Below, piece by piece: positions 17,241 through 39,617 of a stretch of 64,000 nt of DNA. Each line of letters opens with the position of its first letter. Positions within the stretch are counted from its first letter, which is position 1. The stretch is from Tricharina praecox. Its lineage: Eukaryota. The notes below the pieces were generated by a model. The model did no database searches. It saw only the letters and a program-made list of their open reading frames with translations, and was not told where the DNA came from. Location of the stretch: contig NW_026250403.1 in assembly GCF_024521635.1 (NCBI RefSeq), positions 124,001 through 188,000 of the forward strand. The letters are read 5' to 3'. A program made the position numbers and the translations under genes.

Positions 17241-17579
17241 ATGAAAGTTCGTATCACCTCGTACACCGCGACGGCCGTGTGGCGCTGGGACGTTCCGGAG
17301 GACGACGTGTGCGGCATCTGCCGCGTGCAGTTCGACGGTACCTGTCCCAACTGTCGCTTCCCTGGCGACGACTGTTCTCTCGTCAATGGCAAGTGTGGAC
17401 ACTCGTTCCATCTGGTATGTTCTCGTCTATGATGTGTGATGTGTGTGGCGGGAGAGGAGGGAGAGAGGCTGATGGAAGGGCAAATGAAATAGCACTGTAT
17501 CAACGATTGGATTCAGACCGAGGCCTCTGGAGGGCTGTGCCCCATGTGCCGCCAGAAGTTTGAGTTTGGGGCGGTATAA
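17241..17579 (+). CDS. APC11: Anaphase-promoting complex subunit 11 (RING-H2), copy 1, 86 aa
   Basis: Exons 17241-17414 and 17493-17579; MKVRITSYTATAVWRWDVPEDDVCGICRVQFDGTCPNCRFPGDDCSLVNGKCGHSFHL-HCINDWIQTEASGGLCPMCRQKFEFGAV, the typical Apc11 signature. Confidence 0.95.
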
Positions 17580-17798
17580 ATTTGGCTGACTTGCAAACGG
17601 ATGGGCGGAATTTGTGATGATTTGAGGGTGGGCTCAAGGAATCACGAATGAAAAATACCAATTTGCTTTGCGTTTTAAGTTTTGTGCTGTTGATGATGGG
17701 ACTGTGAATTGTAATGTAATGCATATGGTAAGTATAATACATCACAATGCACTCAGAATGTGTTGCGTGTGAGCGCCAGACCGAGTGACACCTCCCAG

Positions 17799-17851
17799 CC
17801 CACCACCACCACCACCACCACCACCACCACCACCACCACCACCACCACCAC
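17799..17851. repeat. (CCA)n microsatellite, ~17 units
   Basis: Pure CCA run at the right boundary of the duplicated APC11 unit. Confidence 0.95.
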
Positions 17852-18895
17852 GTACTGGCATCTGCATTCCTAGTCTGCTAGGGCAGTGACGACTGCTGAA
17901 CATTCCCTCTTATAACGCCCATATTATTCTTTTATCCAGCGAACCCCCATAGTTGGTGCACATAGGTAATATATCCCACGGTGATGGACAAAGCGGCAAC
18001 TCACGGCTTCAGTACTGCGCGAGAGGGCATTAAGTGCCATATAGTAAAAGATGTGCAGAAAACTGGAGGCAGCTACGGCTTCATGTCGCTGCCTCGGCTT
18101 GCCGTGCATTGTATCGGATTGGAATGGCCTGGTTCCGGACAGTGACGGACCGATATATTGATGTTCTGCGTGACCTTTCGAAGTAGATATGATCATCACT
18201 GAACGGCCTTCCCATCGTACAGCATAATGTTAGTCCAGTAGTGCCTAGTTCATGTAAAGTCTCTCCGGGACTCACTCGCAATCGTGCCCGGAGTCCGGGG
18301 GCTTTGCTACCGGCAGTATTTTATTGCAAGCGCTATAAACACGACCGGCTATCCGGCGAAGACCTACTCTCCGTGTGAGATCACCTCTGCTTTGTGTCGG
18401 GCTGGATGTCTCGGCTGTAACAAATTGCGTGGGATCGGAATGCGAGCCGTAGGAATCGTTGTGATATTCTTCGTCTAATCGTTTGCGTGATCCTCAGGAA
18501 AACAGAATGAGGCCTTAGGCGTTATTGTTGGGCCTGAGGATTCAAGGCTCACTAGCCAAGAGACTGCCATCCACCTCGCAAACTCACGATGCCCATTGTC
18601 TAGTCAACAGCGAAATTTGCTTCCTACTCGAGAGACTTGAGGGCCTGGCGTGATAGCTGCGTGGCAGAGTGATTGTGATTTCGTGACGTACTCAAGCACT
18701 TACATGACTAACTAGCGGAAAGCCACCCACTGAATTCCTCCAATCACATGGATACAGTTTCCCGCGGTTCATCGGAATTGACCAGCCCTAACCGCTAGCG
18801 CACCAAACATTTGCCCCGCCAGCAACCTCCACACCTGTGCCCGGCCATCACCACCATCGCCCGCCTACGCCCGCCTCCGCAATCCGCCAACCACA

Positions 18896-20020
18896 ATGTC
18901 GACCGTCACCGACACCCTACTCCGGCACTACAACGCTCTCTACTCCTGTCCCTTCCACCAGACCGTTCTCGCCACCACCGTCCTGGGGCTCACCACCTCC
19001 TACCTCCTCCTGCGCTCCACAGCACCGCCCCCCCGCAGCATTCCCTCGCCACGCATCAAGCCCCCCACCGCGGCGACCCCCTACCCGCCCACCATCCTCC
19101 CAGGCGCGCGCCTCATCTCGACTCCGCATGGCACCATAAACGTCGCGGAATTCGGCCCGCCCCACGGGCGCAAGATCCTGCTGATCCACGGGATCAGCAC
19201 GCCGTCGATCGTCTTCGCGAGTCTCGCGCAGGCGCTCGCCAGCGATGGGTACAGGGTGATGGTGTTCGACCTGTTCGGCCGCGGGTATTCCGACGCACCG
19301 ACGGACGTGCACTACGACGAACGCCTGTTCTCGACGCAGATCCTGTATGCGCTGTACGCCTCGCCGCTGGAGTGGGATCGCTTCTCCGTGGTCGGGTACA
19401 GTCTCGGCGGCGGGATTGCGGTCGCGTTCGCCGCACATTTCGCTCAGAGAATCGAGAGCCTGGTCCTGTTCGCGCCCGCGGGATTGCTGAAGGGGAATGG
19501 CCTCGGGTATTTGACAAAACTGGCGAGGGGCGGATGGGTGCCGAAGGCGATTGAGACGTGGATGCTCGGGCGACGGCTGGCCACTAGGGAGGCGGCGCAT
19601 AAGAAGGATGCGCCGAATGAGGATGGGATGAATTATTCCAATGTGATGAAGTGGCAGGCGGCGGAACATAAAGGGTTTGTCAAAGCGTTTGCGAGCTCGT
19701 TCAGATACGGCCCCATATATGACCGTCAGGAGGAGTGGCGCGCGGTGGGAAAGGCCGGCATCGCGAAGATGGGTGTGCTGATCGGCGAGGGGGATGATGT
19801 CGTTCCGCCCGCTCTGTTGGGGGAGATGGTTACGCTGCTGGGTGGGCAGGAGAGAGTCAGGGGGGAGATTCTGGTGGGCGCGGGACATAATCTGGTTAGA
19901 GAGAGATGGAGGGAATGTGCGGATTTCGTGGGCGACGTGGTTGGTGACCCGGAGGGCTCCGATGATGGCTACGACGACGATGCTATGACTGCTAGTACTA
20001 GCACTTTCGGCGACTTTTAG
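18896..20020 (+). CDS. Alpha/beta-hydrolase fold protein with N-terminal hydrophobic segment
   Basis: LLIHGIS oxyanion motif, FDLFGRGYSD, nucleophile elbow GYSLGG, GEGDDVVP acid and GAGHNL His. Confidence 0.92.
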   Translation: MSTVTDTLLRHYNALYSCPFHQTVLATTVLGLTTSYLLLRSTAPPPRSIPSPRIKPPTAATPYPPTILPGARLISTPHGTINVAEFGPPHGRKILLIHGISTPSIVFASLAQALASDGYRVMVFDLFGRGYSDAPTDVHYDERLFSTQILYALYASPLEWDRFSVVGYSLGGGIAVAFAAHFAQRIESLVLFAPAGLLKGNGLGYLTKLARGGWVPKAIETWMLGRRLATREAAHKKDAPNEDGMNYSNVMKWQAAEHKGFVKAFASSFRYGPIYDRQEEWRAVGKAGIAKMGVLIGEGDDVVPPALLGEMVTLLGGQERVRGEILVGAGHNLVRERWRECADFVGDVVGDPEGSDDGYDDDAMTASTSTFGDF

Positions 20021-20293
20021 GTGGATATATGATGGACCAGACAAAAAGGAAAGACAAGTGAATGGCGAGCTGATGACTGCCTGGTTTAGACTGAAGTTTT
20101 GTATGTATATAAGCATGGCGAGGATGTGGACGTGTGTATTGTAGATATCCCTCTGGTTAGTTAGAGACGAGGGGGTGATTTGGAAAGGCGAGAAGACGGA
20201 CAGAACGGGTTGGTTAAAGAGTCACAAAAAAAAGTTGCATCTCCTCCTCACTTCTCATACCAAGCACTGAATTCCATTTATTATCACATCGAT

Positions 20294-20953
20294 TCATGGC
20301 CAAATCCACCTAGTTTCCACACCCTTATGTCTAACGCCCAATCCCCTCCCTATAGAACTCTCCGCCTCCCTCAGTGTACACTCGGCGCAAAGCCGATTCC
20401 CACACTGCTCACACCAGCACCAATAGTCGACGCTACAGAACCTGCAGCTCCTGCCTTCCTTTCCGAACCTCATCTGGTCCGCGGGCGTGGTCACGGTATC
20501 CTCGGGGATGCACGAGACCGGCTTCGGATCCTGGAACGGGGCAATAGTCTCGATGCGTTGGCGCTCGACGGCGCACTCGCGGCGGACGCAGAGGGGGACG
20601 GCGCATTTGCGGGCGACGTGCGCGGGGAGAACGCACGTGCACGGCACGGGCAGCTCGCGGAAGTGGTGGTAGTGCTCGTTGATTGTCGGGTGCGGGAGGG
20701 ATTTGCGGCGGTGGCGGTCGGGCGCCGGGCTGGAAGGGTCGATGATTGTTGCGGCTCGAACGCGCGCGGAGGGTTCGTCTCTTGTTGCTGCGGGGTCGGT
20801 CATGAATCTGTTGAAGGGGCCGTAGCGAATGGTTTGTGGTGGTGGTGGAGGTCCGGGGAAGGAGTGGGATCGGTCTCGCTCCTTCTGTCCCTTTGGGGGT
20901 GACGGTGGAGGGGTGTTGTATTCAAGGGTCGACCTGAAAACCGGGGTCGCCAT
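20294..20953 (-). CDS. Hypothetical protein (219 aa), Pro-rich N-terminus and Cys-rich C-terminus
   Basis: ATG-initiated ORF with many clustered Cys (CTC..CAVPLC..CRFC..CWCEQC..LCAEC). Confidence 0.65.
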   Translation of the reverse strand: MATPVFRSTLEYNTPPPSPPKGQKERDRSHSFPGPPPPPQTIRYGPFNRFMTDPAATRDEPSARVRAATIIDPSSPAPDRHRRKSLPHPTINEHYHHFRELPVPCTCVLPAHVARKCAVPLCVRRECAVERQRIETIAPFQDPKPVSCIPEDTVTTPADQMRFGKEGRSCRFCSVDYWCWCEQCGNRLCAECTLREAESSIGRGLGVRHKGVETRWIWP

Positions 20954-21409
20954 TCTAATGGTTACTACTTGTTGTGCCTGGTGGAGTTGTATAGATAGAC
21001 GGTACTGGTGAATATTTCGTGGACAGGTTGATCGGAGAGGGTTACATTGTGGTCGGTTGGGGAGTGATCACTCTGTCACTCGTAGGTTATGAGTTTGGGG
21101 CGAGTGATTCAATGTGAAACTTCGCAGGAGCTAGGGATCTTGTTGCACCCAACCTGGTGCTATCCCGATGAACCAGGATTTATACTTGTTACATACCACG
21201 GGGCAGCAGCTAAGGCCCTGTTCATCTTACATTATCTCATTCCTAGTACCATCCAAAGAAGGGGAGGAGTCTCCATCCTCAACCACTACCATCACCACCA
21301 TGCTGCAAAAATCAACGAGAGCACAGATAATTGGAGTCTGATGGGATGGCGGCAAAAACTAATGTGTAGAGGAGGTATCACTAGACAGCCCGAGCGAGAA
21401 GCAAAAGAA

Positions 21410-21495
21410 CGACCACAATGGGACTCGAACCCACAACCTCGGACTGTATCTTATATGGATAGGAGGTCCGCGCGCTACCATTGCGCCATGCAGCC
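21410..21495 (-). tRNA. tRNA-Arg(CCT) with 14-nt intron, copy 2
   Basis: Identical over 86 nt, including the intron, to 9180-9265. Confidence 0.95.
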
Positions 21496-21581
21496 ATCGG
21501 TATTAGTCATGGTCAATTAACAGATATGAGGAGCAGTTCTTAAGCCGCCGGAATTTGACATGTTCTGAACGTACCGTACAC

Positions 21582-22916
21582 CTAATCCAGCCCTGAAAAG
21601 CTGTTGACATTCCTCACACCCGCGCTCTTCGCCTTACCCTTTCCACCCTTCCGCTTCTTCTTCTTCCTCTTCTTCTTCTCCTTCTCATCGTCACTATCCT
21701 CACTATCTGCCGCATCACTATCACTCGCTTCATCACTATCCTCCTCGTCGTTTCGCCTCTTCCTCCCCTCAGCCTCCGCCTCCTGCTCCTCGGAAGGACT
21801 CCACACCTTCACAACCTGCCCGCCACCACTAACAATGCGTCCCTCACAATCAATGCCGAGTGCACTAACCCCCTCCTCGAGGCCCTCGTCATAGTCGCCC
21901 CTCTTAACCCTCGCATTCGCTGCTCTCCGCGCCTCATCGGCACTAACTGAATGCGCCATCGTAGCAACAACCTTATTCCCACCCATCTTCACAATGCGCA
22001 CCTTCCCGTCGCCACTCCCGGCCGCAAAGAAAGTTCCCCAGCCGGCGCCAACCACCTCAAAATCACCGCCCAGCGCAAGTACGGAGTCGATACTATCCCC
22101 GGTCGACCGACTCAGCGGAATCCGTTCCTGATGGTCCTCCCAGAATCCCTTGTTCCACGTCGTCACCACGCCGGCCGCAGTACCGGTCAACAGCTTTTCG
22201 GAGCCGCCCGTGTTCTTGCTGGGCGCGTTGGCGACGAACGCCGTGCAGAGGATCTCATCTTCTTGCGGCTCGGAGCGGGCAAGGACCTTCCCGGGCTTCC
22301 GCACATCGAGGTGGGACAGACTGGTGTCGCCTGTGGCGGCGAATTGGCGTGGGAAGCCGGTGGTTGATGCGGCGGTTACGGGGAGGGCGAGGAGAGAGGA
22401 AATGTAATCCTCGTGTACGTGCTTCCAGGACGCGGCGGGGCCGGCGGAGGTCAGTGTCGAGGGCGTGCGCAGGTCGTACAAGTGGATGTTTCCATCGTCT
22501 GTGCCGGCGAGGAGGTGGACTGGTGACAACGGGAGAAGCGTGGTGGGTGCGTCAGATGCGCTGGGGAGAAGTGATTTGGAGATTACGCGCCCCGTCGAGG
22601 AGTCTGCGGCTTTGATCAGACCGTCGATGCCGTCGGTGTAGAGGACGCTGCCGTCGGAGCTGTAAACGGCGGCACGACAAGAGCCTTTGTGACGGCGTGT
22701 TTTCCAGGCGATTGTGAAGGGATCTCCTGAAGCGGCGGGAGTGGTGACCACATCGTCGTCCTCGTCTTCATCTTTCTCTTCGGGGGTGCTGGGCCAGGTG
22801 TAGGTGTAGACATGGCCTGAGCAAAGCGCGGCAGTGATCAGGGGTGCTGTAGGGTGCACGGCAAGCGCGAAGAGATCGGACGGAAGCCGTATCGAGCGTG
22901 AGTTGTAGGAGGCCAT
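21582..22916 (-). CDS. JIP5: WD40-repeat ribosome biogenesis protein Jip5 (WDR55-like)
   Basis: LPSDLFALAVHP, WKTRRHKGSCR, GTDDGNIHLYDLR, EDYISSL; acidic/basic tail ending FSGLD. Confidence 0.9.
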   Translation of the reverse strand: MASYNSRSIRLPSDLFALAVHPTAPLITAALCSGHVYTYTWPSTPEEKDEDEDDDVVTTPAASGDPFTIAWKTRRHKGSCRAAVYSSDGSVLYTDGIDGLIKAADSSTGRVISKSLLPSASDAPTTLLPLSPVHLLAGTDDGNIHLYDLRTPSTLTSAGPAASWKHVHEDYISSLLALPVTAASTTGFPRQFAATGDTSLSHLDVRKPGKVLARSEPQEDEILCTAFVANAPSKNTGGSEKLLTGTAAGVVTTWNKGFWEDHQERIPLSRSTGDSIDSVLALGGDFEVVGAGWGTFFAAGSGDGKVRIVKMGGNKVVATMAHSVSADEARRAANARVKRGDYDEGLEEGVSALGIDCEGRIVSGGGQVVKVWSPSEEQEAEAEGRKRRNDEEDSDEASDSDAADSEDSDDEKEKKKRKKKKRKGGKGKAKSAGVRNVNSFSGLD

Positions 22917-23209
22917 TCTCGCTGGTGGTTGTGGGTCGTGCGTCTGAAGTCAAAATAAGTTTCGTGAAATTTAACCAAAGTTGAGTCGAATTGTGCGACT
23001 AACCAATCCCTGTTCTTGTGTGACCCTGGGACCCTCTCTAGCACCCCACGCTCAATGACGGAAGTGGGGTGAATCGCGAAGACATTTCTGCTGGAGATTC
23101 CTCAGACGATTCCGCCATCTCCGACTGCACCGTCCATTCGATTGATCCACGACCATACCTACCCAGGAGGACTGCTTCGCCCACCCCCATTATCCCCCAA
23201 AGATCGAAG

Positions 23210-24811: not shown

Positions 24812-24981
24812 AGTAGCTTTGTTTATATTATCGGGTTTCTGGGGAAAGACTGGCTGTGGTGGAACTGCAATGGTGTTGCTGGGCTCAGGTATCTCCGGAT
24901 GATTTCCAGCCCACTGCGCACCACCTTCAGCGGGTTGGCATTACAATGACACAAAAAAGGTATATTACAACAGTCTTATTC

Positions 24982-25754
24982 CTACTTCTTCGGCTTTCCT
25001 TTTCCACTCGGCTTTTTCTCGTCCCCCTTCTCTCCCTTGAACTTCGCTCTCTCTTTCGACTTCCTCTGCTTGAGCTTGAACCTATCGGCCCTGCGCTCAG
25101 TCGCATTGAGGTACCTGAACTTCTTCTTCTTCTCCTTCTTCTTTTTCGGCCACTTCTTCTTCTCCTTCCCATCCTTCCCATCCTCTCCCTCCTTCGCCTC
25201 CGCATCGCCCTCCCCCTCGCCCTCCACTTTCTCCTCCTTCTCCTCCTCAGAATCCGCATCCAAATCCATCTCCTGCACAGTAACAGTCGTGAACTTGTCC
25301 TCGTCGACATAGAGCTCCTTGGTATCCAACTTCACTACCACAGCCTCGTCGCCGATCCCGTCCCACTCGCCATCCTCGTCGTCGCCTCCCACCTCCTCCT
25401 CGTCATCAGACTCCCACGTCCCGCCCGCCGCAACCCGCGCAGACCGTCGCGCAGCTTTCTGCCCCGCCTCCACGAGCTCCTCCAGTTCCTCTTTTCGTTG
25501 CTCCCGCAACTATCGCATCTGTCAGCCACCAGCGCGCAAGACGGGGAGGGGAAGGGGAGGGAGGAGGGGGGAAAAGAACGAACTTGTTTCCGAGCGTCCT
25601 TAGCGGCAAGCTTATCGACGGCCGCGGCGGCCTCTTTCGCCTTCGCGATGCGCTGCAGCTTGCGCTTGTGGAAGCCCGTGAGGTACTCTGTGCGCGCCTC
25701 GCGGTCGAACGTGATCTCGGCGGGGCGCTCGGGAAGTTTGCGTTTTGGCGGCAT
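24982..25754 (-). CDS. RRP17: Nucleolar rRNA processing protein Rrp17/Nop25 (NOL12 family)
   Basis: EITFDREARTEYLTGFHKRKLQR and KKKKFRYL motifs; intron 25583-25510. Confidence 0.92.
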
Positions 25755-26337: not shown

Positions 26338-28846
26338 TCACTTCCTATTACAATTCCCCAAGCACTGGCCGGGCTTATCGCCATAGAGCACACCACAGCT
26401 GTAACAAAACTCGGCCGAGCACCTGCACGTCATGTGCAGGCAGCCCTCCTTCCTCTCGACGACAGTCTTGCACTTGGGACACTCCATCCAGCGCTGCTGC
26501 TTCACGAGGTTCCTCACCATCTGGCCCTCCTTATCCTCCGTGCAGATGCCGCTGTGCGAGGCCTTCCTGCAGTGCCGGCACACGGCCGTCGCGCATTTGG
26601 GGCAGCTGCCCGTGTCGCCCCGGATACCGGCGGGCGGGATGAAACTGCTGCAGTTGGGCGCGGGGCAGTAGAGGGGATTGGGCGTGTCGAGCTCGAGCAG
26701 CATGAGGCGGTAGGAGGCCACGAACTCGGGGGTTATGTGTGTCCCTGCGAGGCCTATATCGACGCGCTGCGAGCAGCAGGTGAAGGGCTTCTTGTCTTTG
26801 AGGGCGATGTTGAAGGGGGCTTTTGTTTGCACGAGTCAGTATGCGATGTGTAGTGGTGGTATCCGGGTGAGGGGGGGGGGACTAACCTTTCAGACAATCG
26901 ACACTCACGCAATAGGCATGTTCACACGACAAAATGATCATGTCCGTCTTATCGTACTCCTCTGTGCAAACCACGCACTCCGACACCATCTCTCTACGGA
27001 TTCTCTCCCTCTCCGCGTCCACGACGCGGATCCTCTCCTGCTCCTCCTCCTCAATCTTTCGCTTCAACTCCTCATACTCCATCCTCAGCCGATTATCCTC
27101 CTCCTCCTCCTCGCGATCCCACTGCTCGGCCAGCAGACGATCACTATCCATCTGCGCCTCAAAAGCAGCCGCCCACTCATCCCTGACGCGCCGTGCAACG
27201 GCCTCCTGCTCCTGCATTATCCGGTCCTCCTGTTCCTGCATCCAGCGTGCGTGCGCCATATCTCGCTCACGACGGATCTGAGCTTTGCCGCCGTGTAATT
27301 CGAATTCAGCCAGCAAGCTCCGCTGCTCCTCCACCAGTCGAGCATACTCCTCGTCCGTGTCTTCATCGCTATCGTAGTCATCGTCGGAATCCAGATCCGC
27401 GCGGGCTAAGTGCGCAGCATATGCAAGGTCCGCGGCGTACTGCGCTTCCGGCCGCGCTTGCTCCTTCTCCTCCGACGGGATATCGTCGCTATCGTCATCC
27501 TCGCTGCCATAATCCCCGCTGCTATCATCATCGCAGTCGCCATTCGTCTGTCTGTAAGGAGAGGACGAGAATTCGCGCTGGGCGTCGGTGGTAGGCTCTG
27601 GTACAGGGTGGTGGTCCAACCCACCCCAGTGCGTGCCGAAGACGTTGCCGAAGTCCTCTTCCGCTCTCGATGCGAAGGTGGGGCGTGTGGCCGGTTGTGC
27701 CCGTTGAATCCGGCTTCGAAAGGGAGTTGTCGGGTACGGGGGACGGGGACCTGATCCCCAAGGGTTCCGGGTGCTGCTGGCTACGGGCGCGGGCGTAGAT
27801 GCAGTTAATATTACTGGCACTTTGGGAGGAGGTGTGGGCGGCCCCGGCTTGTGGATTGCTCCTGCTACGGGAAGCGGCCCGTCATCGTCGCTGTCGGACG
27901 AATAGTCGTTGAAGCTCGGAACATTGGTTCGCGTGCTGTTTGCAAAGCTCGGCACGGTGGGGCGCGTGCCAATTGGTTGGAAGCCGGAGAAAGCCGGTTG
28001 TATTTCTTCCGGTGACGGTGGTGTGTTTATCCCTGAGGAGCTGAACCCATCTCGCTCCGGTGAGCTGGACGGAGAGGCGTGCTTTGAACTTGAGGAATGG
28101 TAGGTCCTCCTTGGTGCCCTGTAGTCATCGTCTTCCCAGTCTGTGTCTGGCTCGGTGGGCATTGCATATCTTGATGGACGAGACTCGGGCTTGGTCATCG
28201 GCCAGGAGTAGTTGTTCTATACACGACTCAGCCGTGCGCAATTGAGCATCATAGGATAAAAGCGAAGGATAGTCTTTACCCCTTCTTCTTCCTCCTCCTC
28301 CTCCTCCTCATCCTCCTCTTCCTCCGGCCATGCATGGGCACTCCCAGCTCCGAGAAAAAGTCTTGGACTCGGAACGTTGGGCGGCGAGCAGGTTCCGGAC
28401 GGGCCAGCAGTGTACTTCGACGAAGCCGGGAACACCATCTGACCGGTGAACGGGTTCAAGAACGGTTCGTCATCGGCACCAGCATCTTCCTGATCGAAGA
28501 AAGCGCCAAAAACCTTTCTGTACTCTGCCGGCTCCAGTTCCCACCGGTCCATCTCAGGATCCGGTGGTGGGGCGGGCGGCGCAGTATACGCGGAATCCGT
28601 GGCGGCCATCGCCTTGGGTTGCTTAGTGATTACGGCAGCCATTTCGGGGACGACTTTTAGACACCGCTCGACGGTTTCGAGGTGGATGCGCCGCTGCCGC
28701 TCGAGCTCCTCGTCGCTGGATGTGGCTGGGTTTTTGCCCTTGCGTGGAAGTGTCGAGTCTTGCTGCGACTCCTGCGACTCCAGGCTTTGTCGCCAGAGGG
28801 TGAGCGCCTCGTAGAGAGTGGTGGCGGCGTCCGAGGAGGATACCAT
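26338..28846 (-). CDS. RBR (RING-IBR-RING) E3 ubiquitin ligase with long low-complexity N-terminus
   Basis: RING1 CVVC..CEHAYC..C, IBR YCPAPNC..CPKC..CRHC..H..C, RING2 CPKC..EGCLHMTCRCSAEFCYSC; intron near 26886-26842 and probably one near 28260-28210 (5' exon less certain). Confidence 0.85.
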
Positions 28847-30873: not shown

Positions 30874-31286
30874 ATGCGCCCACCCCACAGCATCCCCACG
30901 ACAGTCCCGTCGCTGCAAAGTGTACCTCCCTCCTCCCTCTTTCCGCCGCCCCCGCCTCGGACTAAAAGCTACGCTAGTTCCTCCTGCGCACGCGCGCGCT
31001 GCACTTCTACCGCGACATCCTTCGGGCGACGGCGCAGGCGCGCGGACGCCACGAGCTCCGGCAGTGGGCGAAAGATGAGTTCCTGCGGAACCGGAACGTC
31101 ACTGATCAGACGCATATACGGTATTTACTTGATGTATGTAGTTACCTATGGCTGGCTGGCTGGCTCGCTGGCTCGCTGGGGTGGGGGATGGGGGATGGGT
31201 TTTGGCTAATGTGAATTTACTGGAAAAAGATGGGGAAGAGGGAGTTTACTACTATGAAACGGTATTTGGAGGAGGAGGGGCGGTAG
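30874..31286 (+). CDS. LYR-motif mitochondrial protein (LYRM2-like), 86 aa, 3 exons
   Basis: Exons 30874-30921, 30978-31133, 31230-31286 give MRPPHSIPTTVPSLQS-FLLRTRALHFYRDILRATAQARGRHELRQWAKDEFLRNRNVTDQTHIRYLLD-MGKREFTTMKRYLEEEGR; not present as such in the ORF track. Confidence 0.88.
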
Positions 31287-31481
31287 GTTGGTAGGTTGGT
31301 AGGATTTTTATTTGTGAATCATTGGAAGAGAAGGAATGGATCAAGGAAGGAATGATGGAATGAAGGTGAAGGAATGTATCATACAACAGCTACATACAGA
31401 ACGAGCAAAACATGACGAGTAACTACCGGTGTCAGACCAGCCAACATCACTACCTACTCACAATTCATTTCCTCCCCACTA

Positions 31482-34419
31482 CTACCTCCTCCGTCGCAAC
31501 TTAAACCTCAATCCATCGTCATCGCTATCATCGCTATCACTCTCCGCATCCGACCCAATCTTGAGGGCCGTCTTTGGTTTCTTCGCGGGGGGGACTCTAC
31601 TACTGGCCTGCGGGGGCACCGGTCGCTTCGTCCCGGCCTGCGTCTGACTCTGTGACATCGATGGGAGCGCGCTACTGTTGCGGTGATGGGGTTGCGGTGT
31701 CTGTGCTTGACTGGTAGTTCCGCCTCGGCGGTTGCGGAGGCTAAAGGTGGGCGGGGAGTCGGGGTCGGATTGGTCTGCCTCGGCAGGTTCGCGGGCGGTG
31801 GAGAAGGCGCCGGCACCACCACGGCGGGGTGGCGAGGGGATGATTTCCTCTGCTTGTTGGGTGCTCCGCTGTGTTCCCTTGCGGCGGGATGAACCCGAGT
31901 CTTCGTCCCCGATCCAGTAGCCTGTAGCAAAATCAGCTTGCTGTTTGGTATCAAAAGAACCACAGATAGCCCACCATCTCCAATGCCGAAATCCCGGTGC
32001 TTGTGTTCAACAAGATCAATAAGTATCTTGGGCCCATTGAAGGATCTAGTACTGCTCCCCGTACCAGAGCGTCTAAACCCCTTGAAGTTTTCCCGTCCAT
32101 TCCACTCTGGCTTCCATCGATCACTTCCCTCTCCACTTGCAGCTCTAAAGGACCTATTGACGCGGGGCTTGACTTCCACAGTCTCTACAATCGCCAGATT
32201 CTTCAATCCGGCAATATCGACACCTTCCATAGCCCTTTGTTCCTCGACCTTAACCCTTTCTGCCTCAGCCGCCTCCTTCTCCCTAATCTCGCGCGCCTGC
32301 ACTTCGAAGGTGGTCTCGGGCTTGCCACGTTTCTTCATCTTGGCCGGAGTCTTTGGCTCTGCTTTTACCGATACCTGGGATGCTGCAGATTCGTCGACCG
32401 CGATGGATTCCTGTGGGGAGATCGTCTCGCCGCGGCGAGCACGTTCTTCTTCCTCCGCGACTTTGCGGCGTTTGGCAATTCTTGCACCAGGCAGGAGATC
32501 CATCATGTCCAGGTTCTCGTCGCGGTCTGGCACTGCGGGCGCGGCGGGGGCGGGGCGTTTCCGTGAGGGCGGCTGTGAGCCAACTATGATACTATCCGCT
32601 ATCGAGGACGAAGGCTCGTCCTGTTCCATCTCCATTGGTGTCGGGATGAGTCGATTAAAACTCGACTGTTTACCCAGATTCTAATCGCACCAGGTTAGCA
32701 GCTGCTCCATCTATGCCCTGTTGATCACCTACGTCGTTCGAGAATATTGGCTGGTCTCTCCTGCTCTCTGGACTCTGTGTTGGAATCTGACTTGCGGGCT
32801 CGGGAGTCGGCGCCACGAAATCACCACCGACATCGAAGGCAAAAGGATCGATGGGTGTGGCACCTCTCCGTCGAACCTACTCGTTCGTCAGTCAAAGGGA
32901 CACCGCAACATTGGCATGCGTAGACCGACCCTGGCCCTGGTACGAGTTGCAGCTGGGCCTTCGGAGGGAGCAGGTTTTTTGGCGGATTCGGGCTCCGGTT
33001 TAGCTTGGGATTGTCAGCTATTCTGTGGCCTGAATGCACGTGAGTTTCCAATCTATATACCTCTGTTACTAGGCGTAGGTGGTTCCGGTGAGCGTTGCCG
33101 GGGACTCTGCTGTTGCTGGAGTGGTCGGTGAAGAGTGGAAGTATCACAACTCAGGATAACCTCCAGAAACTCGTTCTGTTCGACAACGCGAAAGCCCAAT
33201 CTACAACCCCATCAGTCTGAGCACACCTCCGCCATTGCAGCCAGAATAAAACCTACAACTGCTGCAACTTCTGAGTAAATCTCATTTCCCAGTCCGGATT
33301 TGTCTTTGACCTAAACCTGACCACGGCGATATCGTCCCCGAGTCTCCGCTTCTGCACAAAGTCCGCCAGCTCCTCAGGCAGTGTGACGCCATCCTTGATT
33401 GTGAACTTCTCCGGCTTCCCTCCAGCATCCGTAATAGGTGCAAGGAGGTTATGGTACTGCACCTCGTCGCCAAACACAAATACCCAACCTTCAAAAATGT
33501 TCTTTCTCCTTCCATCCGGGGCATAAGCCTCCGGGGGCTGCGACACAGGCTCATAGCCCACGGGCGGGAGAAAGTCCTCCGCCGTGGGCCAGTGCGCATC
33601 GAAGTCACATTCCAGCGACGACTGGGGCGTCTGTCCGTTGTCCGTCGGTGGCAACTGAGCAGCCGAGACGATGGCGTCGATGTAGGAGTGTGTCACGATG
33701 TGTCGGCCGTTGACGAGGGCTTGTAGACCGATTGCAGTGTTGCGTTTTGCGGCGATGACATGCGTGGTGCCGTCGGTCCAGGTGGCGATGGTTTTGATGT
33801 CCAGCTTCTCTAGTTGCGAACGATACACGGCCATGCTGTTCTTGTCTTTCCGCTCCTTGGAGGAGAGAGAAACCGAAAAGATTACTGGCGTCCATTTCAC
33901 CCTGCCTTTGTGAGCCCACTTCACTCCTCTATGCGGGTTGTGGTGTATAGCGAACCTAAACGCACAGCCATGCTTCCCCAGATAGAAACCGTGCTCGTCG
34001 CGTGTATCGAGAGCAACAGTCCCCTTGATCTTCTTGCCATTCCAAATCGTGCCATGCTTTGTATCACAGTCTTGGATCGTGAGTTCCGTTCGGGCGTGGA
34101 GTTTGATCTGCCCCACCGACCATCAGCACCACGCCGCTACTTCACAAACCACCGGTAGGATAGGCCATACTCCGTCCCCTTCATTTACAGGGCCCACGTT
34201 GATCACCAAATGCCGTCGCGAAATCGATCGACTCGAGGGAACCACGGCGGTAACTACATCGCACGCATTAGCCCTCAGCTCCCCCCCGCCCCGCCAACCG
34301 CTACCTCGCGACATACCATCGTCGCACTTGACTCTTCCAAGAACACATCTCGTGCCCGGCCGTAACCATATGCGAGTTCCGTTCAGCGTGTCCTTGTCGT
34401 CGCATCCTAAAAGCCACAT
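31482..34419 (-). CDS. NBS1: Nibrin / Nbs1 (MRN complex; FHA-BRCT-BRCT), multi-intron
   Basis: FHA: RIWLRPG..SISRRHL..DTKHGT; BRCT: THVIAAKRNT..LQALVNG..IVTHSYIDAI; Mre11-binding WNGRENFKGFRR; acidic C-terminus DDDGLRFKLRRRR (Tel1/ATM-binding type). Confidence 0.9.
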
Positions 34420-34862
34420 GATGCGATGCGTGTCGTCGTTGGCAGCTGCGGATGTCGTGAAGTGTCGCGTTGATGACTCTTCACACAGCCGGGGAGTCGG
34501 GGATGACGCGATTTAGCGCTATGGCCGTGTTGACCTCACGTGCGCGCGAGAGCTGACAACCTACCTAGAGAGGTTTTATGCCAACAGAATGAGCCTAACG
34601 CTATTTAGCTAGCGGACTCGGAAGAGCTTCACGCGAGTGATATTTAATGATATAAAATATTCGGCTTCGTCGCGGCGGCGATTCGGCTGCCCGCGCATGG
34701 AGTCCTTCTTACAAAATCCACCCGGACTCAACCAGTTTTGCTCCAACTAAGTCAAGTACAAAGTCAGGTTGATCCTCAGATGTAGGCCTTTTCAGCTATT
34801 GTGAAAACTTCAATAAAAACAACTTGTATTAAAATTTAAATACTCCATCTCCAAGTCTTTCA

Positions 34863-35900
34863 GTCATCCTCCTGCCCGTCTTCCGACTCACCACCACTTC
34901 CCTCTTCCAGAGTCTCTTCCAAACGGCTCATGTCGTCTCTCAATGTTTGCAGGCGGCTTATCTCCCTTTCTTCCTCCTCTTGCAACCGAGCAACTGACTT
35001 TCAAGTCACTGGCAGCCGTTTTCCGTCCTTCTCCATCCCCATATATTTCTCTTTCTTTGCTGTTAACTCCTTCACCCGGTTGGCCAACTTATTAGCTTTT
35101 TCCTGCATCTTTGCGATCCTCGCAAGGCAAACATTCTCCGTCGTACGTGCTAGAGATTCCTCATACTCATCTATCTGTTGGACAGACGTAAATTATCGAC
35201 CCTCATCTGGAATTCTCCGCCGTTTTCGCGGTTTTTGTTGTTTGCTAGCTGACTCCCGCTTGGCTCCAGCCTCAAGTCGCTGCTCCAAATTGTCGCAATG
35301 GTGAAGTTTCACTATGTGAGCTTTTGAAACTTTGCTGAAACCATGGCGAAGCCTTCATGAACGTGGACTGTTGCTTTTCAGATCTAATTCAAGGGATTCG
35401 CGGAGTTGGTGGAACTCTTGATGATCCCGAGGGGGTGGAAATTGCGAAGACTTCGGCCGCAGAAAGAGATGATAGTGAACGAATTGGAGAGGAGGTCGAT
35501 AGCTGAGATGGCAACTCAACACTGGCTTGGTGGCTGTTGGTTCTTTGATGCCAATAGTTCTTCCAAGAACCTCGAAATCCAAAGGGACTGGGCCGGTCCA
35601 CCAGAACCCACTGCGGATATTCTCCCGTGTAATAAAATACACTGGGAAAGTACTATACCACTCGACTAAAAGGTATTTTGATGGCTGAAGGCCATCATCC
35701 CAGTAGCTACTTGAGGCATAGATTTCTTAACCGTGACACTAGATGACTTCATTAGTATCGGGATAGGCTGAATCTTGGCGCTGCAAGATGAGGCTGATAA
35801 TAGTGAGAAGGTCTCTCTCTCATCACCCAACGGTCCCAACCACCACAACTATCATGATGACAATGTCAAAAGATACGAGAGGGAAAGAGAACGTCTTGAA
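34863..35900 (-). mobile_element. Degenerate pogo/Fot1-like (DDE_1) transposase remnant
   Basis: Broken frames contain ITRENIRSGFWWTGPVPLDFEVL (cf. NIxSGFxxTGIxPxxxxVL of pogo-type transposases), a weak 'SSCSAKIQP' match to the SHxLQP motif, and a K/R/E-rich tail with internal stops and frameshifts; ends not defined. Confidence 0.55.
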
Positions 35901-36137
35901 CAGTCGTTGTGGTGATAATGAATCGCTGGTTTGAAGAAAAAATAAGAAATTTGTGAGGGTCGCACAGCAAGGCTGAACCCCTGTTGTCAGCCTATCTCAA
36001 CACTAATGAAGCCATCTAGTAGTTCCGAGTCTGTGCAGAAAATCCGGGCCTTTCGAGATTCGGACCAAAGTGACTCTTGCTGTTAGGCTTGGACTTGGAC
36101 TGCCTACAAACAGCCGAAACGAGATCAAACACGATAG

Positions 36138-36563
36138 TAGGGGTTCTCAAACCTATCTGGGTGAAAATCTGGCCGAGTGATAAGGTGTTTTACTGGTCCG
36201 GCAAATACCGAATTTTTCAGGATCCGCTAAAATTCTCCAGACGCCACTACTTTTCCGGACCGCGAAAACACCGTCTGGGTGCCGTCTGGGAGACTGCAGG
36301 AGCTCTAGCTCGCCTTTAGCTCACCATAATAGGTGTAGGTAACGGGCGGTTTCCGGGATCAAGGACTGAGACTGCAGAAATTTTCTCTCGGCGCCGGTCT
36401 GGCCAGTTCGTATCGAGGAAAGTGGCCCGATACGCTTCTATCCAGAACAGCACCTGGCACGGGGTCCTCAAACCTACATCGCAAGTCTGGCTATTCTGAT
36501 TGGCTAATGTTTCCAAACCAGATTCCGGCTAGATTTTCACCTAGATAGGTTTGAGGACCCCTA
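36138..36563. mobile_element. Non-autonomous TIR element (MITE), 426 bp, hAT-like termini
   Basis: 38-bp inverted repeats: TAGGGGTTCTCAAACCTATCTGGGTGAAAATCTGGCCG (36138-36175) vs reverse complement of 36526-36563, 35/38 identical; no clear TSD. Confidence 0.78.
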
Positions 36564-37431
36564 GTTTCCCGGACTTTCACCACTAACAAACACAAGGATC
36601 CACAGACGATGGCAGTAGTATATTCATACAGCCTATCGGAAGCCCAGGAGCCGTTCATATGGGTGAGGTGGGGAGCAGTCAGCCTGTCGGATCCGGGAAA
36701 CGTTTTTCGTGCTATTGTTCCAAGAGTGTTGATACGCTTCCTCGTAAGGGAACAGGCCAGAGGCGTTTTTGAGCAGGGCATTCCTGAAGTGCCTTGGTCC
36801 TGGAGGCCCAGCATGATTAGGTGCTAGAGGGAGAATTCAAGGCCATCCAGTCAAGAATATGAATCGACAAATCCAGGATTCAATCATATTCTTCACGGAT
36901 GTTTCGCCCAAATATCAAACGACGGTTCGATTCGTTGACGAAATTTCCAGGGAAGTGCAATTTCCGCGGTGTCCTCTCCCGAGAGCTGTGGAAAAGAGAG
37001 CTTGCAAGAGTGTCAGTAGCTGCTCGGCTCGCGAGAAAATCGATTGAAGTATACCCAACGTCCTCTCTTCATCGTCTCCATCTTGTTCAGCCGAATGCCT
37101 CCTCGTCTTCGAATGACGGTGGTGGCCAAAGAATGTATCTAGAAGATGATGTAAGGGAGAGTGGTGTATGTAGTGTACCTTGTACATGTCGAGGAGAGCT
37201 CCTTTTCCTCTGCTTCCCCGCACATGCACGATGACCCCCAGCATAGCAGGGATGACCCGCTAAGCTAGAGCAACTAAGGTCGCCGAGCAAACCACCGCAA
37301 CCAGCCGTGAACAGCTCATCCAGCCAGCTCCTCTCTGTGGACTCTTCGACTTCCACTACTTGTACTCGCTCCATACCATCACCGCTCCCATCACACAGCT
37401 TCATCATCAACCAAAACCAAGCCTACGCTCA

Positions 37432-38167
37432 ATGTCCGGCCCAGCCCCCATCGACACCACCACCGCCACCGATACCAACCCGGGCGTCGACCTCTCCCCC
37501 ATCGGTCCGACCAAGGACCGCAAGAACTCGCTGGAACATGGTATCTCCCCGCCGTCACTGTCCATCCCCGCGCCATCCCTCAATCTTAGCTAACAGAGCA
37601 AACAACAAACCAGCCCTCCAATTCCGCCCGGAAGAGAAAGACCTCGTAGACCGCAACATCCTGCACCATGGAGCACCAGCGATCCAGCGTCAGCAGGCTG
37701 GTACCCCATCCCGCCGTCCCCCCACTCGCTCTCGGCCACTGATCTAGCTACCTACTCGCGTAGAGCTCGAGAAAGCTATGGCCCAGGACGCCCTGAAGAA
37801 ACACCTTTCGAAGCGGCCGACGAAGGAGGAGCTGTTGCAGAGTGAGCTCCCCCCGCCCCGCCCCCATCCCATGTTCCCCCATGTTCCCCCCCACCTTCCC
37901 CTCGATATTGACGAGATATAACTACAGGGGGAGTCCTTCCCGAGAATCACAACGTCGCCCCGGCCCTCATCGCTGCGCAGCGGGATCTCGAGAAGAGTAT
38001 GCTCGAAGACACACTCAAGGAGAAGCTTGCACACCGCCCCAAGCCGGAGGAGGTTGTTGAGAAGGGGATTCTTTCTCGTGAGTACCAACCCTACCTACAA
38101 TATGGAAGAGAGATGTGGGGCTGATTATGGGGGGACTTTAGCGGAGGAGGATCCTACCAAGGTGTAA
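37432..38167 (+). CDS. RPEL-repeat protein (4 introns)
   Basis: Spliced product has three RPEL-type repeats: LQFRPEEKDLVDRNIL, LSKRPTKEELLQRGVL, LAHRPKPEEVVEKGIL. Confidence 0.9.
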
Positions 38168-38469
38168 GGGAGCGAGGGAAGATTGGGGAAGACTCTTGTA
38201 TTGGTTGATACCTTTCGCTTTGCTTTGCTTTGCTTTCGATTGAACGGCTGGCAGGAAATTGTCAAGTCTTGAGTATGCATTACATTACAATTCAAATTGC
38301 AATTCACACTGCCATCAGCACATAACGTCACATTACAATTCACGATCCCATAACAGCACTGAACGTAAAACGCAAATTGATATTTTTAATCGTCATCGTG
38401 ATTCCTTAAGCCCACCCTCAAATCGTCACAAACCCCCCATCTGTTTTGTTTGCAATCCAGCCCACCCAT

Positions 38470-38788
38470 CTACTGCGCCTCGAACTCGAACTTCTGGCGG
38501 CACATGGGGCACAGTCCTCTAGACGCCTCAGTCTGGATCCAGTCGTTCACACAGTGCTTTGTTTCCCCTCATCAGCCTCACCCGCCACACATAGGTATCC
38601 TAGAGATTACTTACCAGATGAAACGAATGTCCGCACTTGCCATTGAGCAACGGACATTCATCGCCCGGAAAGCGACAGTTGGGACAGGTACCGTCAAACT
38701 GCACGCGGCAGATGCCGCACACGTCGTCCTCCGGGACGTCCCAGCGCCACACGGCAGTTGCGGTGTATGAGGTGATGCGGACTTTCAT
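38470..38788 (-). CDS. APC11: Anaphase-promoting complex subunit 11, copy 2, 86 aa
   Basis: Exons 38788-38615 and 38556-38470; 58-nt intron GTAAGT..GCTGAT..AAG; full RING-H2 intact. Confidence 0.93.
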
Positions 38789-39292
38789 CTTGCTTGTGGG
38801 TGTTTGTGGTCGTGGGTCGTACTAGTCGTGGGTCGTGGGTCGTGGGGGTCGTCGTATAGTCGTGGTTGGTCGTGGTAGGGAGGAAAGGCGGGGAGGAGGC
38901 GGGGAGGCGGGCGGTAAAGGTTAGGGCGGGCTTGTTGTGGTGGCGGGCGGCGTGGGGTGTCGTGACGTGGTGGTGGCGACGTGCTGAGAGGTGTCACTCG
39001 GTCTGTCGTCAGTGCATATGATGTACTTACCTTATGCATTACATTACAATTCACAGTCCCATCATCGGCGCATAACGGCTTGCAGGAGAATGTCAAGTCT
39101 TGAGTATGCATTACATTACAATTCATACGGTCCCCTCATTAGTAGCACATAACGTAACATTACAATTCACAGTCACCATAATCATCACTGAGCGTAAAAG
39201 GCAAATTGGTATTCTTCAGTCATCGTGATTCCTTGAGCCACCCTCAAATCATCCCAAATCCCGCCCATCCGTTTGCAATCCAATCTCCCCAT

Positions 39293-39617
39293 TTACTGCG
39301 CCTCGAACTCGAACTTCTGGCGGCACATGGGGCACAATCCCCTAGAGGCCTCAGTCTGAATCCAGTCGTTGACACAATGCTGTTCCGCTCATCAGCCTCT
39401 CCCGCCACACACACACCCAAATCCTAGACGACGAGAGACATACCAAGTGAAACGAGTGACCACACTTGCCATTGAGCAACGGACATTCATCGCCGGGGAA
39501 GCGACAGTTCGGACAGGTACCGTCAAACTGCACGCGGCAGATGCCGCACACGTCGTCCTCCGGGACGTCCCAGCGCCACACGGCAGTCGCGGTGTATGAG
39601 GTGATGCGGACTTTCAT
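39293..39617 (-). CDS. APC11: Anaphase-promoting complex subunit 11, copy 3, 86 aa
   Basis: Exons 39617-39444 and 39379-39293; 64-nt intron GTATGT..GCTGAT..CAG; protein identical to copy 2. Confidence 0.95.

Follow-up and report, generated by a model that had tools for sequence, protein, structure and literature searches.

The window, by which we mean the whole 64-kb stretch of DNA that was analysed, comes from a soil fungus allied to the cup fungi and contains three intact two-exon APC11 genes of 86 codons each (c1, c2 and c3), which confirms an earlier sequence-only reading to the base. The splice sites in each copy were taken as the sole GT...AG pair that restores an Apc11 C-terminus. The gene models are as follows:

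17241-17579, plus strand, APC11 copy c1
17241-17414, plus strand, c1 exon 1, codons 1-58 (Pfam zf-ANAPC11, E 1.6e-20)
17415-17492, plus strand, c1 intron, 78 nt (GTATGT...TAG, CTGAT branch-point-like motif)
17493-17579, plus strand, c1 exon 2, codons 59-86 plus TAA
38788-38470, minus strand, APC11 copy c2
38615-38788, minus strand, c2 exon 1 (Pfam zf-ANAPC11, E 2e-20)
38557-38614, minus strand, c2 intron, 58 nt
38470-38556, minus strand, c2 exon 2 plus TAG
39617-39293, minus strand, APC11 copy c3
39444-39617, minus strand, c3 exon 1
39380-39443, minus strand, c3 intron, 64 nt
39293-39379, minus strand, c3 exon 2 plus TAA

The intron follows codon 58 in phase 0 in every copy, and re-splicing bears out the earlier description of three complete 86-residue reading frames with one intron position. 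The donors are GTATGT (c1 and c3) and GTAAGT (c2), and the CTGAT branch-point-like motif is retained in all three introns. A recount of c2 against c3 gave the same figures as before: 15 codons differ, all synonymously (9 in exon 1 and 6 in exon 2), as does the stop codon, with no amino-acid change. Between c1 and c2/c3, 33 nucleotides and seven residues differ (D44E, S46P, V48L, I61V, G71R, G84E and V86Q, from c1 to c2/c3), the N-terminal 43 residues being unchanged. As had been noted, c1 keeps its zinc-ligand residues; all 12 Cys/His are present in each copy (C24, C27, C35, C38, C45, C52, H54, H57, H59, C60, C74 and C77). Divergence of the coding sequence among the three copies is 6–13%, and the flanks are more diverged. 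No stop, frameshift, splice-site or ligand loss was seen in c1, despite a dS of about 0.65.

Profile searches, in which exon 1 of c2 also stands for c3 (identical protein), gave scores with zf-ANAPC11 (PF12861) of 73.3 bits for c1 exon 1 and 73.0 bits for c2 exon 1, against a cut-off of 25. The zf-rbx1 profile is weaker (49.7 bits for c1 exon 1 and 50.4 bits for c2 exon 1; E 3e-13). The best match to exon 1 among solved structures is human ANAPC11 (E 2e-17, residues 1-58 on human 1-57), followed by yeast Apc11 (2e-16), RBX2 (2.5e-9) and RBX1 (1e-6). Exon 1 holds 8 of the 12 Cys/His, and all 8 align with human ANAPC11. PF12861 is found in 81 of 81 database relatives, of which the named ones are annotated as APC subunit 11. 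The explanation favoured here, which as a whole we consider probable, takes c1, c2 and c3 as true paralogues of the gene for Apc11, which is the catalytic RING-H2 component of the anaphase-promoting complex. The three-zinc ligand set of the RING-H2 domain is complete in each copy, and zinc binding is predicted.

Purifying selection is strong on c2 and c3 and weaker on c1. The c2–c3 comparison (NG86) has Sd 15 and Nd 0 (dN 0, dS 0.35, ω approximately 0), and the chance of all 15 differences being synonymous is 6e-11. ω is 0.076 for c1–c2 and 0.068 for c1–c3 (Fisher P at most 1e-11), values that fall among those from comparisons with orthologues (0.036–0.099). Branch counts were polarised with c1 and two outgroups. 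Synonymous and non-synonymous changes number 8 and 0 on the c2 branch, 7 and 0 on the c3 branch (P 4e-6 and 2e-5) and 7 and 2 on their common stem. The c1 branch has 5 synonymous and 6 non-synonymous changes and five ambiguous codons (5–8 synonymous by assignment). Tested against neutrality, 6 non-synonymous of 11 unambiguous changes is marginal (P 0.06); P becomes 0.009 or 0.003 when two or three ambiguous synonymous sites are assigned to c1. The ratio of non-synonymous to synonymous changes is 6:5 in c1, whereas c2, c3 and their stem together have 2:22 (Fisher P 0.006), and c1 changes its amino acids about seven times faster. The ω of the c1 branch, estimated from branch counts, is about 0.25 and hence below 1, with no sign of positive selection. 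Purifying selection, as claimed earlier for all the copies, thus stands for c2/c3 and for c1 compared with them (ω 0.07–0.08), dN/dS being below 1 in every comparison between copies; for c1 alone it is marginal (P 0.06 to 0.003), with a ratio of non-synonymous to synonymous changes significantly above that of c2/c3. From copy to copy, dS is 0.35–0.67, and it reaches about 1 outside the conversion tract described below. dS estimates are noisy because the gene has 258 coding bases, and dS against orthologues is near saturation (0.9–1.8). The ratios record past selection, and recent silencing of one copy is invisible to them.

The differences between c2 and c3 are not evenly distributed. Codons 1–35 hold 1 of the 15 synonymous differences, with dS 0.044 vs 0.73 in codons 36–86 (binomial P 0.0023), and the 60 nt upstream of the ATG hold two mismatches. 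The tract of near-identity has two sides:

38684-38845, minus strand, c2 side of the conversion tract, -57 to +105 from the ATG
39513-39674, minus strand, c3 side of the conversion tract (repeat D1 at 96% identity)

The 162 nt of the tract hold 3 differences, against 14 in the 153 coding bases that follow, and the intron has diverged. Site patterns inside the tract are c2=c3 at 15 sites, c1=c3 at 2 and c1=c2 at 0. Such near-identity bounded by diverged sequence is as in tandem genes under concerted evolution, and the earlier account of c2/c3 identity needs correcting in that part of the identity stems from a gene-conversion tract.

Every copy lies within a duplicated unit of about 0.8 kb that comprises promoter, both exons, intron and 3'UTR. 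The units and their junctions are:

17047-17845, plus strand, c1 unit, one unit length, circularly permuted: partial promoter, gene, truncated 3'UTR, filler, upstream segment
17692-17845, plus strand, c1 3' flank junction: truncated 3'UTR, about 30 nt of filler, ancestral upstream segment (CAGAATGTGT...GACCGAGTGA...), then a terminal (ACC)n run
38243-39073, minus strand, tandem unit A, containing c2
38934-39066, minus strand, c3–c2 inter-copy junction: remnant of an older c1-type truncated 3'UTR, filler, c2 upstream motif
39074-39924, minus strand, tandem unit B, containing c3, with the ancestral upstream flank
39890-39898, minus strand, ACCGAGTGA motif upstream of c3

In the tandem pair, 38243-38874 matches 39074-39704 at 85.7% over 650 nt (blastn), and the direct repeats D1 and D3 are spaced 829 and 823. 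Comparison of the window with itself by blastn aligns 17060-17717 with 39808-39157 (79%), 17692-17845 with 39066-38934 and 17754-17809 with 39924-39870. The c1 3' junction is 72% identical to the c3–c2 junction over 157 nt (E 6e-19) and 86% identical to the ancestral upstream flank of c3 over 56 nt (both blastn). ACCGAGTGA has just three occurrences in the whole window, the other two being upstream of c2 (38994-39002, minus strand) and downstream of c1 (17780-17788, plus strand); the distal ancestral upstream segment, this motif included, is missing from the promoter side of c1. CCGAGTGA lies upstream of APC11 in two of the 73 loci with at least 300 nt of upstream sequence, namely those of two relatives (L001, at -189, and L002, at -94). 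The c1 unit starts and ends at one unit coordinate and carries the end-to-start (3'UTR-to-promoter) junction. As a circular permutation of exactly one unit with this junction, c1 would have been copied from the tandem array or from a circle, and we infer an array or circle intermediate. Since the same junction is also present in the array, a reinserted circle and a one-period array copy are indistinguishable for c1.

The relatives are two related Pezizales species represented by the metagenome contigs L001 and L002; a third contig (L003) is of the same species as L001 (6992 of 7000 bases identical). The neighbouring JIP5 protein in the window is 68% identical to JIP5 of Pyronema omphalodes and Sphaerosporella brunnea. 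Window 47087-40146 aligns collinearly with both contigs to one side of APC11, and beyond the gene the matches are to 38792-37195 for L001 and to 38176-37849 for L002. APC11 is single at the c2/c3 position in both, so the c2/c3 site, which is the orthologous position, is ancestral and the c1 site derived, and the triplication is probably lineage-specific. None of the 80 loci examined has a second APC11 copy, which together with the single gene at the syntenic site fits the earlier premise of a normally single-copy gene. No relative shows the site that corresponds to c1 (the L001 contig stops at window 26340), so c1 may be older or more widely distributed. Monophyly of the three copies against L001 and L002 has an ultrafast bootstrap of 97 (8 binary informative sites), which concerted evolution could also mimic. 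The internal split among the copies has 60% support and sites outside the conversion tract show mixed A/B/C patterns, so any order given to the duplications is tentative.

The three copies would have arisen in this Pezizales lineage by duplication, at the DNA level, of the 0.8-kb unit. A head-to-tail duplication at the ancestral c2/c3 locus would have created the 3'UTR-to-promoter junction, after which one full array period, or a circle excised from the array, would have been inserted in inverted orientation 21 kb away to give c1. This copy sits in intergenic DNA between two divergent ORFs (14025-16004, minus strand, and 18896-20020, plus strand). Later exchange between the tandem copies, including the recent conversion from -57 to +105, would have produced their mosaic history.

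Taken on the sequence data, the triplication is real, old and selectively maintained, and the alternatives to this reading differ in weight. That the copies are an assembly artefact, either uncollapsed haplotypes or a mis-joined repeat, is extremely improbable. The sequence around c1 is unique and 21 kb away, and c1 itself has the opposite orientation and a coding sequence diverged by 13%; intron length, 3'UTR structure and flanks all set c2 apart from c3, and the junctions of the two are unique. Contigs of the metagenome run X1 give the junction segments with 0 differences, over 38816-39062 (from the c2 promoter to the junction) and 39096-39323 (from the c3 3'UTR to exon 2), with 29 of 30 bins covered; the c1 stretch has at least half of its sampled words in two of the three listed runs. 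Set against this, none of the listed X1 contigs spans the whole array or bridges 39062-39096, and X1, the best-matching run, is possibly the source sample of the assembly and so not independent support. It is nearly as improbable that conversion, and not selection on each copy, accounts for the identity of the c2 and c3 proteins. The tract and the mosaic site patterns speak for conversion having occurred, but it removes synonymous and non-synonymous differences equally, and codons 36–86 nevertheless have 14 synonymous and 0 non-synonymous differences; this count largely refutes conversion as a complete explanation.

More weight, though still little, goes to the reading that only one copy is active today, c2 or c3 at the ancestral locus being the likeliest, and that the others are recently silenced duplicates not yet decayed. 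Repeat-directed methylation, reported in Ascobolus, is an example of a possible route. The raised ratio of non-synonymous changes in c1 and its lack of the distal upstream segment, with ACCGAGTGA lying downstream of it, would fit. However, the 7–8 synonymous and 0 non-synonymous changes on each own branch mean that c2 and c3 were both constrained for most of their divergence (dS 0.35–0.73), c1 has no lesion after its own, and the divergence of coding sequences and flanks would be expected to lower repeat recognition. The earlier statement that the duplicates show no mutational inactivation holds: C:G to T:A changes are 6 of 15 polarised changes and TpA/ApT is 0.47–0.65 in the copies vs 0.68 for the window. 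By the RIP thresholds used, no RIP-like signature was found in the copies, an excess of C:G to T:A and a raised TpA/ApT both having been looked for. Somewhat less improbable, but still unlikely, is that c1 encodes a neofunctionalising or stage-specific variant of Apc11 and so provides a separate APC/C catalytic module, used for instance in sexual development. c1 has six amino-acid changes on its branch vs two on the whole c2/c3 clade and a new genomic and promoter context between the two ORFs, with all ligands and the N-terminal 43 residues unchanged. Yet the changes are conservative and at positions variable among orthologues (c1 residues occur in other Apc11: S after DDC in P0034, I in HCI of P0004 and V47 in human), and the branch ω stays below 1.

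Under the favoured explanation of three maintained paralogues, long-term purifying selection on all three coding sequences lets us infer a functional Apc11 product from each copy. Homology suggests that its N-terminal strand docks into Apc2 and that its three-zinc RING recruits the charged E2. Dosage sharing, with c2 and c3 each supplying part of the Apc11 needed, is the most likely reason for the retention of both, although we propose it tentatively. For c1, constraint may be relaxed or regulation diverging; that this copy is stage-specific is doubtful. The fullest scenario, in which an excised one-unit circle reinserted 21 kb away, c1 became a specialised second, stage-specific catalytic module and the tandem pair remained as the housekeeping dose, is decidedly improbable.

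A single gene usually encodes Apc11, the catalytic RING of an E3 ligase that is essential and stoichiometric. A fungus with three constrained copies is a natural test case for how dosage-sensitive complex subunits tolerate duplication, and for dosage sharing vs regulatory divergence among APC11 copies. One 0.8-kb unit brings together tandem duplication, conversion between copies and a dispersed copy that is circularly permuted. The impact is limited in that plant APC11 duplicates are known, the organism is not a model and nothing new in biochemical activity is indicated. No fungal case of retained APC11 duplicates was found in the literature searched.

Human ANAPC11 (PDB 4ui9, 5g04) and Saccharomyces cerevisiae Apc11 (8a3t) belong to the same Pfam family and have the same pattern of 12 Cys/His. 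Exon 1 aligns end to end with human 1-57, the MKV..I N-terminal strand included, and the human protein has 84 residues vs 86 in the window copies. There are three genes here, not one. RBX1/Hrt1 and RBX2, the RING-box proteins of cullin-RING ligases, share the three-zinc RING-H2 fold family; the window proteins, however, score higher to APC11 in the Pfam and PDB searches and match it from residue 1, whereas RBX1 and RBX2 chains are matched only past 20–30 extra N-terminal residues. Gene duplication via circular DNA intermediates is described, in a review, for Nile tilapia vasa and cattle KIT (colour sidedness) (PMC3420103). c1 is likewise circularly permuted with an end-to-start junction; array template switching in the low-complexity promoter repeat would explain c1 equally well, and a circle is one of two possible routes. 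Retained APC11 duplicates are already on record in plants, which corrects the earlier picture: they are rice OsAPC11_1/_2 and grapevine VvAPC11_1/_2 (PMC3095333). The rice pair is 97% identical, and its authors report differential expression and low Ka/Ks. As there, more than one APC11 is kept here and the proteins are very similar. The rice pair lies in segmental duplications on different chromosomes of a paleopolyploid, whereas the copies here are three, local and built from a unit of about 0.8 kb in a haploid ascomycete.

The three APC11 copies of the window, c1, c2 and c3, were modelled by enumerating all GT...AG pairs in each copy and choosing the splice that recovers the conserved Apc11 C-terminus. 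In each copy a single pair does so, giving an 86-codon open reading frame in all three copies, with the intron after codon 58 in each.

Gene models of the APC11 copies
c1: exon 1 17241-17414, intron of 78 nt, exon 2 17493-17579, plus strand
c2: exon 1 38788-38615, intron of 58 nt, exon 2 38556-38470, minus strand
c3: exon 1 39617-39444, intron of 64 nt, exon 2 39379-39293, minus strand

The introns retain canonical donors and a CTGAT branch-point-like motif, and all 12 Cys/His residues are present in the three copies. In Pfam, exon 1 of c1 and c2 scores 73 bits with zf-ANAPC11 (cut-off 25) versus 50 bits with zf-rbx1. The top solved structure is human ANAPC11 (residues 1 to 58 aligned, E 2e-17); yeast Apc11 ranks next, and RBX2 and RBX1 come after it with much weaker scores. 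PF12861 is found in 81 of 81 relatives from a large protein collection. The nearest full-length relatives belong to the Pezizomycetes (Ascodesmis nigricans, 76% identity; Ascobolus immersus, 71%); the window's own Apc11 proteins were not found in this collection, where the top full-length match is 76% identical. Residues 1-43, including the N-terminal strand, are invariant across c1, c2 and c3. In solved complexes, this strand of Apc11 pairs with the cullin subunit. By homology, all three products are expected to serve as the APC/C RING-H2 subunit. Upstream of the c1 start, a second in-frame ATG lies at 16941 with no stop in the interval (16941-17240, plus strand), and a start there would add a 100-codon proline-rich low-complexity extension. 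Because of out-of-frame ATGs at 17029 and 17054, the real c1 transcript start is suggested to lie further downstream.

Self-comparison of the window aligns 38243-38874 with 39074-39704 (85.7% over 650 nt), which sets the tandem period at about 830 bp, and 17060-17717 with 39808-39157 in inverted orientation (79%). The repeats reach well past the coding sequence; therefore, each duplicated unit takes in the gene together with a low-complexity promoter of about 180-300 bp and a 3'UTR of about 250 bp. The neighbours are housekeeping genes (alpha/beta hydrolase, JIP5, DPH2, RBR-type E3, nibrin, an RPEL-repeat gene, PHAF1 and mitofilin). For JIP5 (21582-22916), identity is 68% to the proteins of Pyronema omphalodes and Sphaerosporella brunnea and 87% to one further database protein, which places the organism in the Pezizales, close to the Pyronemataceae. 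In P. omphalodes, APC11 and JIP5 appear to share one contig of 118,440 bp. A transposon carrier is ruled out, as the unit has neither terminal repeats nor transposase and sits among ordinary housekeeping genes; retroposition is ruled out by the intron and promoter kept in all copies. Two RPEL repeats (E 1e-4 and 6e-9) at 37778-38124 (plus strand) mark a gene convergent on the c2 3' end. Two tRNA-Gly(TCC) genes, 9179-9265 and 21409-21496 (both minus strand), lie 12.2 kb apart, both within a 103-nt direct repeat of 97% identity. Three head-to-tail 90-nt repeats (14883-15152; 79-86% identity to the first) lie inside the ORF 14025-16004 (minus strand), whose 659-aa product has no match in Pfam. 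(ACC)n/(GGT)n microsatellites recur at 17800-17853, ~41541-41572, 42524-42586, 45112-45149 and 53353-53403, and one of them forms the right-hand end of the c1 unit.

A metagenome scan with exon 1 as query matched 289 stretches, 201 of them encoding a relative, and the best 80 of the 201 were analysed. Three loci (L001, L002 and L003) reach 95% exon 1 identity. L001 and L003 represent one species (6992/7000 bases identical), L002 another. Around c2/c3 the two species are both collinear with the window. For L001 the matching blocks are 47087-40146 on the upstream side and, downstream, 38792-37195, 34549-31487 and further to 26340; for L002 they are 45099-39969 upstream and 38176-37849 downstream. 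At the c2/c3 position each species carries a single APC11, with the shared intron position. L001 ends at window position 26340, short of the c1-equivalent site, and the comparison with these relatives covers the surroundings of c2/c3. Among the best 80 of the 201 loci, 29 of which have at least 5 kb on both sides, none has a second exon-1 or exon-2 match. In the tree, c1, c2 and c3 group together versus L001 and L002 (8 binary informative sites, bootstrap 97), with 60% support for their internal order. The dS is 0.35 for c2-c3, 0.64-0.67 between c1 and c2/c3, and 0.9-1.8 from the window copies to the two relatives. Because of this grouping and these synonymous divergences, the triplication appears to have arisen within this lineage, after the split from the L001 and L002 relatives, yet to be old. 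The gap between conserved blocks is about 2.6 kb in the window (34549-37195) versus about 1.2 kb in L001 (11500-12699). In many of the more distant fungi, only about 1 kb separates APC11 from a homologue of a rhodanese-like gene (L006, L008, L015, L028-L032, L037, L042, L044, L047, L066 and L067). The rhodanese-like gene of the window (60624-61352, plus strand) is 21 kb from APC11, so an old linkage would have been stretched or rearranged in this lineage.

The counts of the sequence-only reading proved exact: between c2 and c3 there are 15 synonymous codon differences (9 in exon 1, 6 in exon 2) and no replacement, and c1 departs from both at 7 residues. The stop codons of c2 and c3 are TAG and TAA, and 33 nucleotide differences separate c1 from c2/c3. 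Omega was calculated by Nei-Gojobori, and changes were assigned to branches by parsimony on the tree ((c1,(c2,c3)),L001,L002). Omega is 0 for c2-c3 (15 synonymous, 0 non-synonymous), 0.076 for c1 versus c2 and 0.068 for c1 versus c3; the c1 values are within the orthologue range of 0.036-0.099.

Changes by branch (parsimony)
c2: 8 synonymous, 0 non-synonymous
c3: 7 synonymous, 0 non-synonymous
c2/c3 stem: 7 synonymous, 2 non-synonymous
c1: 5 synonymous, 6 non-synonymous, 5 further codons ambiguous

Since the neutral probability of no non-synonymous change is 4e-6 for c2 (8 changes) and 2e-5 for c3 (7 changes), c2 and c3 have each been constrained independently. The ratio of non-synonymous to synonymous changes is higher in c1 than in the c2/c3 clade (6:5 versus 2:22, Fisher P 0.006). 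Against neutrality, c1 alone is marginal (P 0.06, or 0.009 to 0.003 with some ambiguous synonymous sites placed on the c1 branch). The c1 replacements fall at positions variable among orthologues, and c1-type residues are found elsewhere: the serine after DDC in P0034, an APC11 relative from the protein database, the isoleucine of the HCI motif in Ascobolus, and valine at the L48V position in human. A RIP-like signature was not seen, with C:G to T:A in 6 of 15 polarised changes and TpA/ApT of 0.47-0.65. The earlier proposal of purifying selection on the three genes, with extra dosage or a specialised Apc11 as candidate reasons, is partly supported: constraint is clear for c2 and c3, and c1 taken alone is only marginally off neutrality.

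The 15 differences between c2 and c3 are unevenly spread (binomial P 0.0023), with 1 in codons 1-35 (dS 0.044) and 14 in codons 36-86 (dS 0.73); the 60 nt upstream of the ATG contain only 2 mismatches. In the three-way alignment from -60 to +105, c2 equals c3 at 15 sites, c1 equals c3 at 2 and c1 equals c2 at 0. Elsewhere the site patterns are mixed (distal promoter 13/13/2, intron 6/7/0, 3'UTR 11/14/10). The pattern marks a recent gene-conversion tract (-57 to +105 relative to the ATG) overlying three copies of roughly similar age. Conversion as the cause of the identical c2 and c3 proteins is ruled out because all 14 differences outside the tract are synonymous. As the two genes encode the same protein and each has remained replacement-free over a dS of 0.35-0.73, the data argue that both would be needed, and dosage sharing between them is the favoured reading.

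Homology of c1 starts about 194 bp 5' of the ATG, at a CCCA(T/C)GCCGCCCGCC motif. Its 3' flank departs from the ancestral 3'UTR course of L001, L002, c2 and c3: past ...GAATTGTAATGTAATGCATA there are about 30 nt of filler, then ancestral APC11 upstream sequence (CAGAATGTGT...GACCGAGTGA...CAGCCCACCA) and the terminal (ACC)n run. The gap between c3 and c2 (39066-38934) holds the same truncated 3'UTR, filler and upstream motif, and matches the c1 flank at 72% over 157 nt, with 40 of the first 41 nt identical. This end-to-start junction is the product of head-to-tail duplication or circularisation. The two ends of c1 fall at almost one unit coordinate, and c1 is a single complete unit in circularly permuted form. 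It may stem from a circle of one unit, excised from a tandem array or made by end joining, that reinserted at 17 kb. Gene duplication through circular intermediates is known from tilapia vasa and cattle KIT, as outlined in PMC3420103. Alternatively, template switching in the low-complexity promoter repeat may have copied one array period. A derived internal 3'UTR duplication of 40-50 nt is shared by c2 and c3, and neither c1 nor the remnant upstream of c2 has it; the present pair was therefore remodelled after c1 had departed. The present arrangement takes no fewer than three events of rearrangement or conversion.

When sequencing runs were searched with the c1 stretch, three came up, all soil-metagenome DNA from a single study (X1, X2 and X3), and these have no bearing on expression; at least half of the sampled c1-stretch words are present in two of the three. 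All 14 X1 contigs placed on the tandem pair are at least 99% alike, and the eight listed pieces have no differing letter, among them 38816-39062 (c2 promoter into the junction) and 39096-39323 and 39294-39555 (c3). The listed pieces leave 39062-39096 unbridged, and the window sequence may itself come from the X1 sample, so the match is consistency with the tandem assembly rather than independent proof. X2 covers 10 of 30 bins and X3 3 of 30; uncovered parts carry no evidential weight. Contig depth was not taken as copy number, a 141-nt piece shared by c2 and c3 having 19.7 versus about 6-8 beside it. That c1 is a haplotype of c2/c3 is ruled out, since it lies inverted in unique flanking sequence with a CDS diverged by 13%. 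A 151-nt X3 contig joins 39024-39066 and 38396-38432 (671 back) with 44 other letters between. It was rejected as a new rearrangement, as it fits a c1-type 3'UTR-to-junction order placed on the c2/c3 look-alikes. Because its arrangement is that of the c1 3'UTR running into the junction, a c1-type copy is probably also present in the strain of the X3 sample.

The motif ACCGAGTGA lies upstream of APC11 in c2, c3, L001 and L002 (38994-39002 and 39890-39898 in the window, both minus strand) and downstream of c1 (17780-17788, plus strand), with no other occurrence in the window. It could serve as an APC11 promoter element or belong to the 3' end of PHAF1, the gene upstream. The distal upstream sequence is lost from c1, which is inserted between two divergently oriented ORFs and whose protein evolves faster. 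This copy may be drifting because constraint on it is relaxed, or it may be gaining regulation of its own. In the 3'UTR, a UGUA-rich element (GAATTGTAATGT...) occurs once in c1 and once in L002 and is multiplied in the pair (three in c2; two in c3, plus one in the junction remnant); the locations are 17690-17725, 38270-38350 and 39030-39185. Near it, AATTTGC followed by a T-rich stretch occurs in all five 3'UTRs, as a variant in c1 and c3 and in the form TTTTACGTT in c2, L001 and L002. Both 3'UTR elements are possible RNA-binding-protein sites.

The literature found contains no paper joining apc11 with Pezizomycetes, and a query on APC11 gene copies in filamentous fungi returned work on plants or humans only. 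In a preprint on pyrophilous fungi (10.1101/2025.07.17.665399), none of the terms 'anaphase', 'ubiquitin' and 'cell cycle' appears. No account of several APC11 genes in one fungus turned up in the literature searched; the supplementary copy tables of an APC/C phylogenomic survey (PMC3195147) may bear on single-copy status. That survey follows Apc11 across fungi and stresses duplications of co-activators, not of Apc11. For rice and grapevine, PMC3095333 describes APC11 duplicates that were kept, whose proteins are nearly identical, whose Ka/Ks is low and whose expression differs. The window copies resemble these in being retained paralogues. As a set of kept paralogues of an APC/C subunit, they preserve the history of their duplication with unusual clarity. 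The triplication itself is genuine, and evidence of copy-specific expression or of a separate role for c1 would add to its value.
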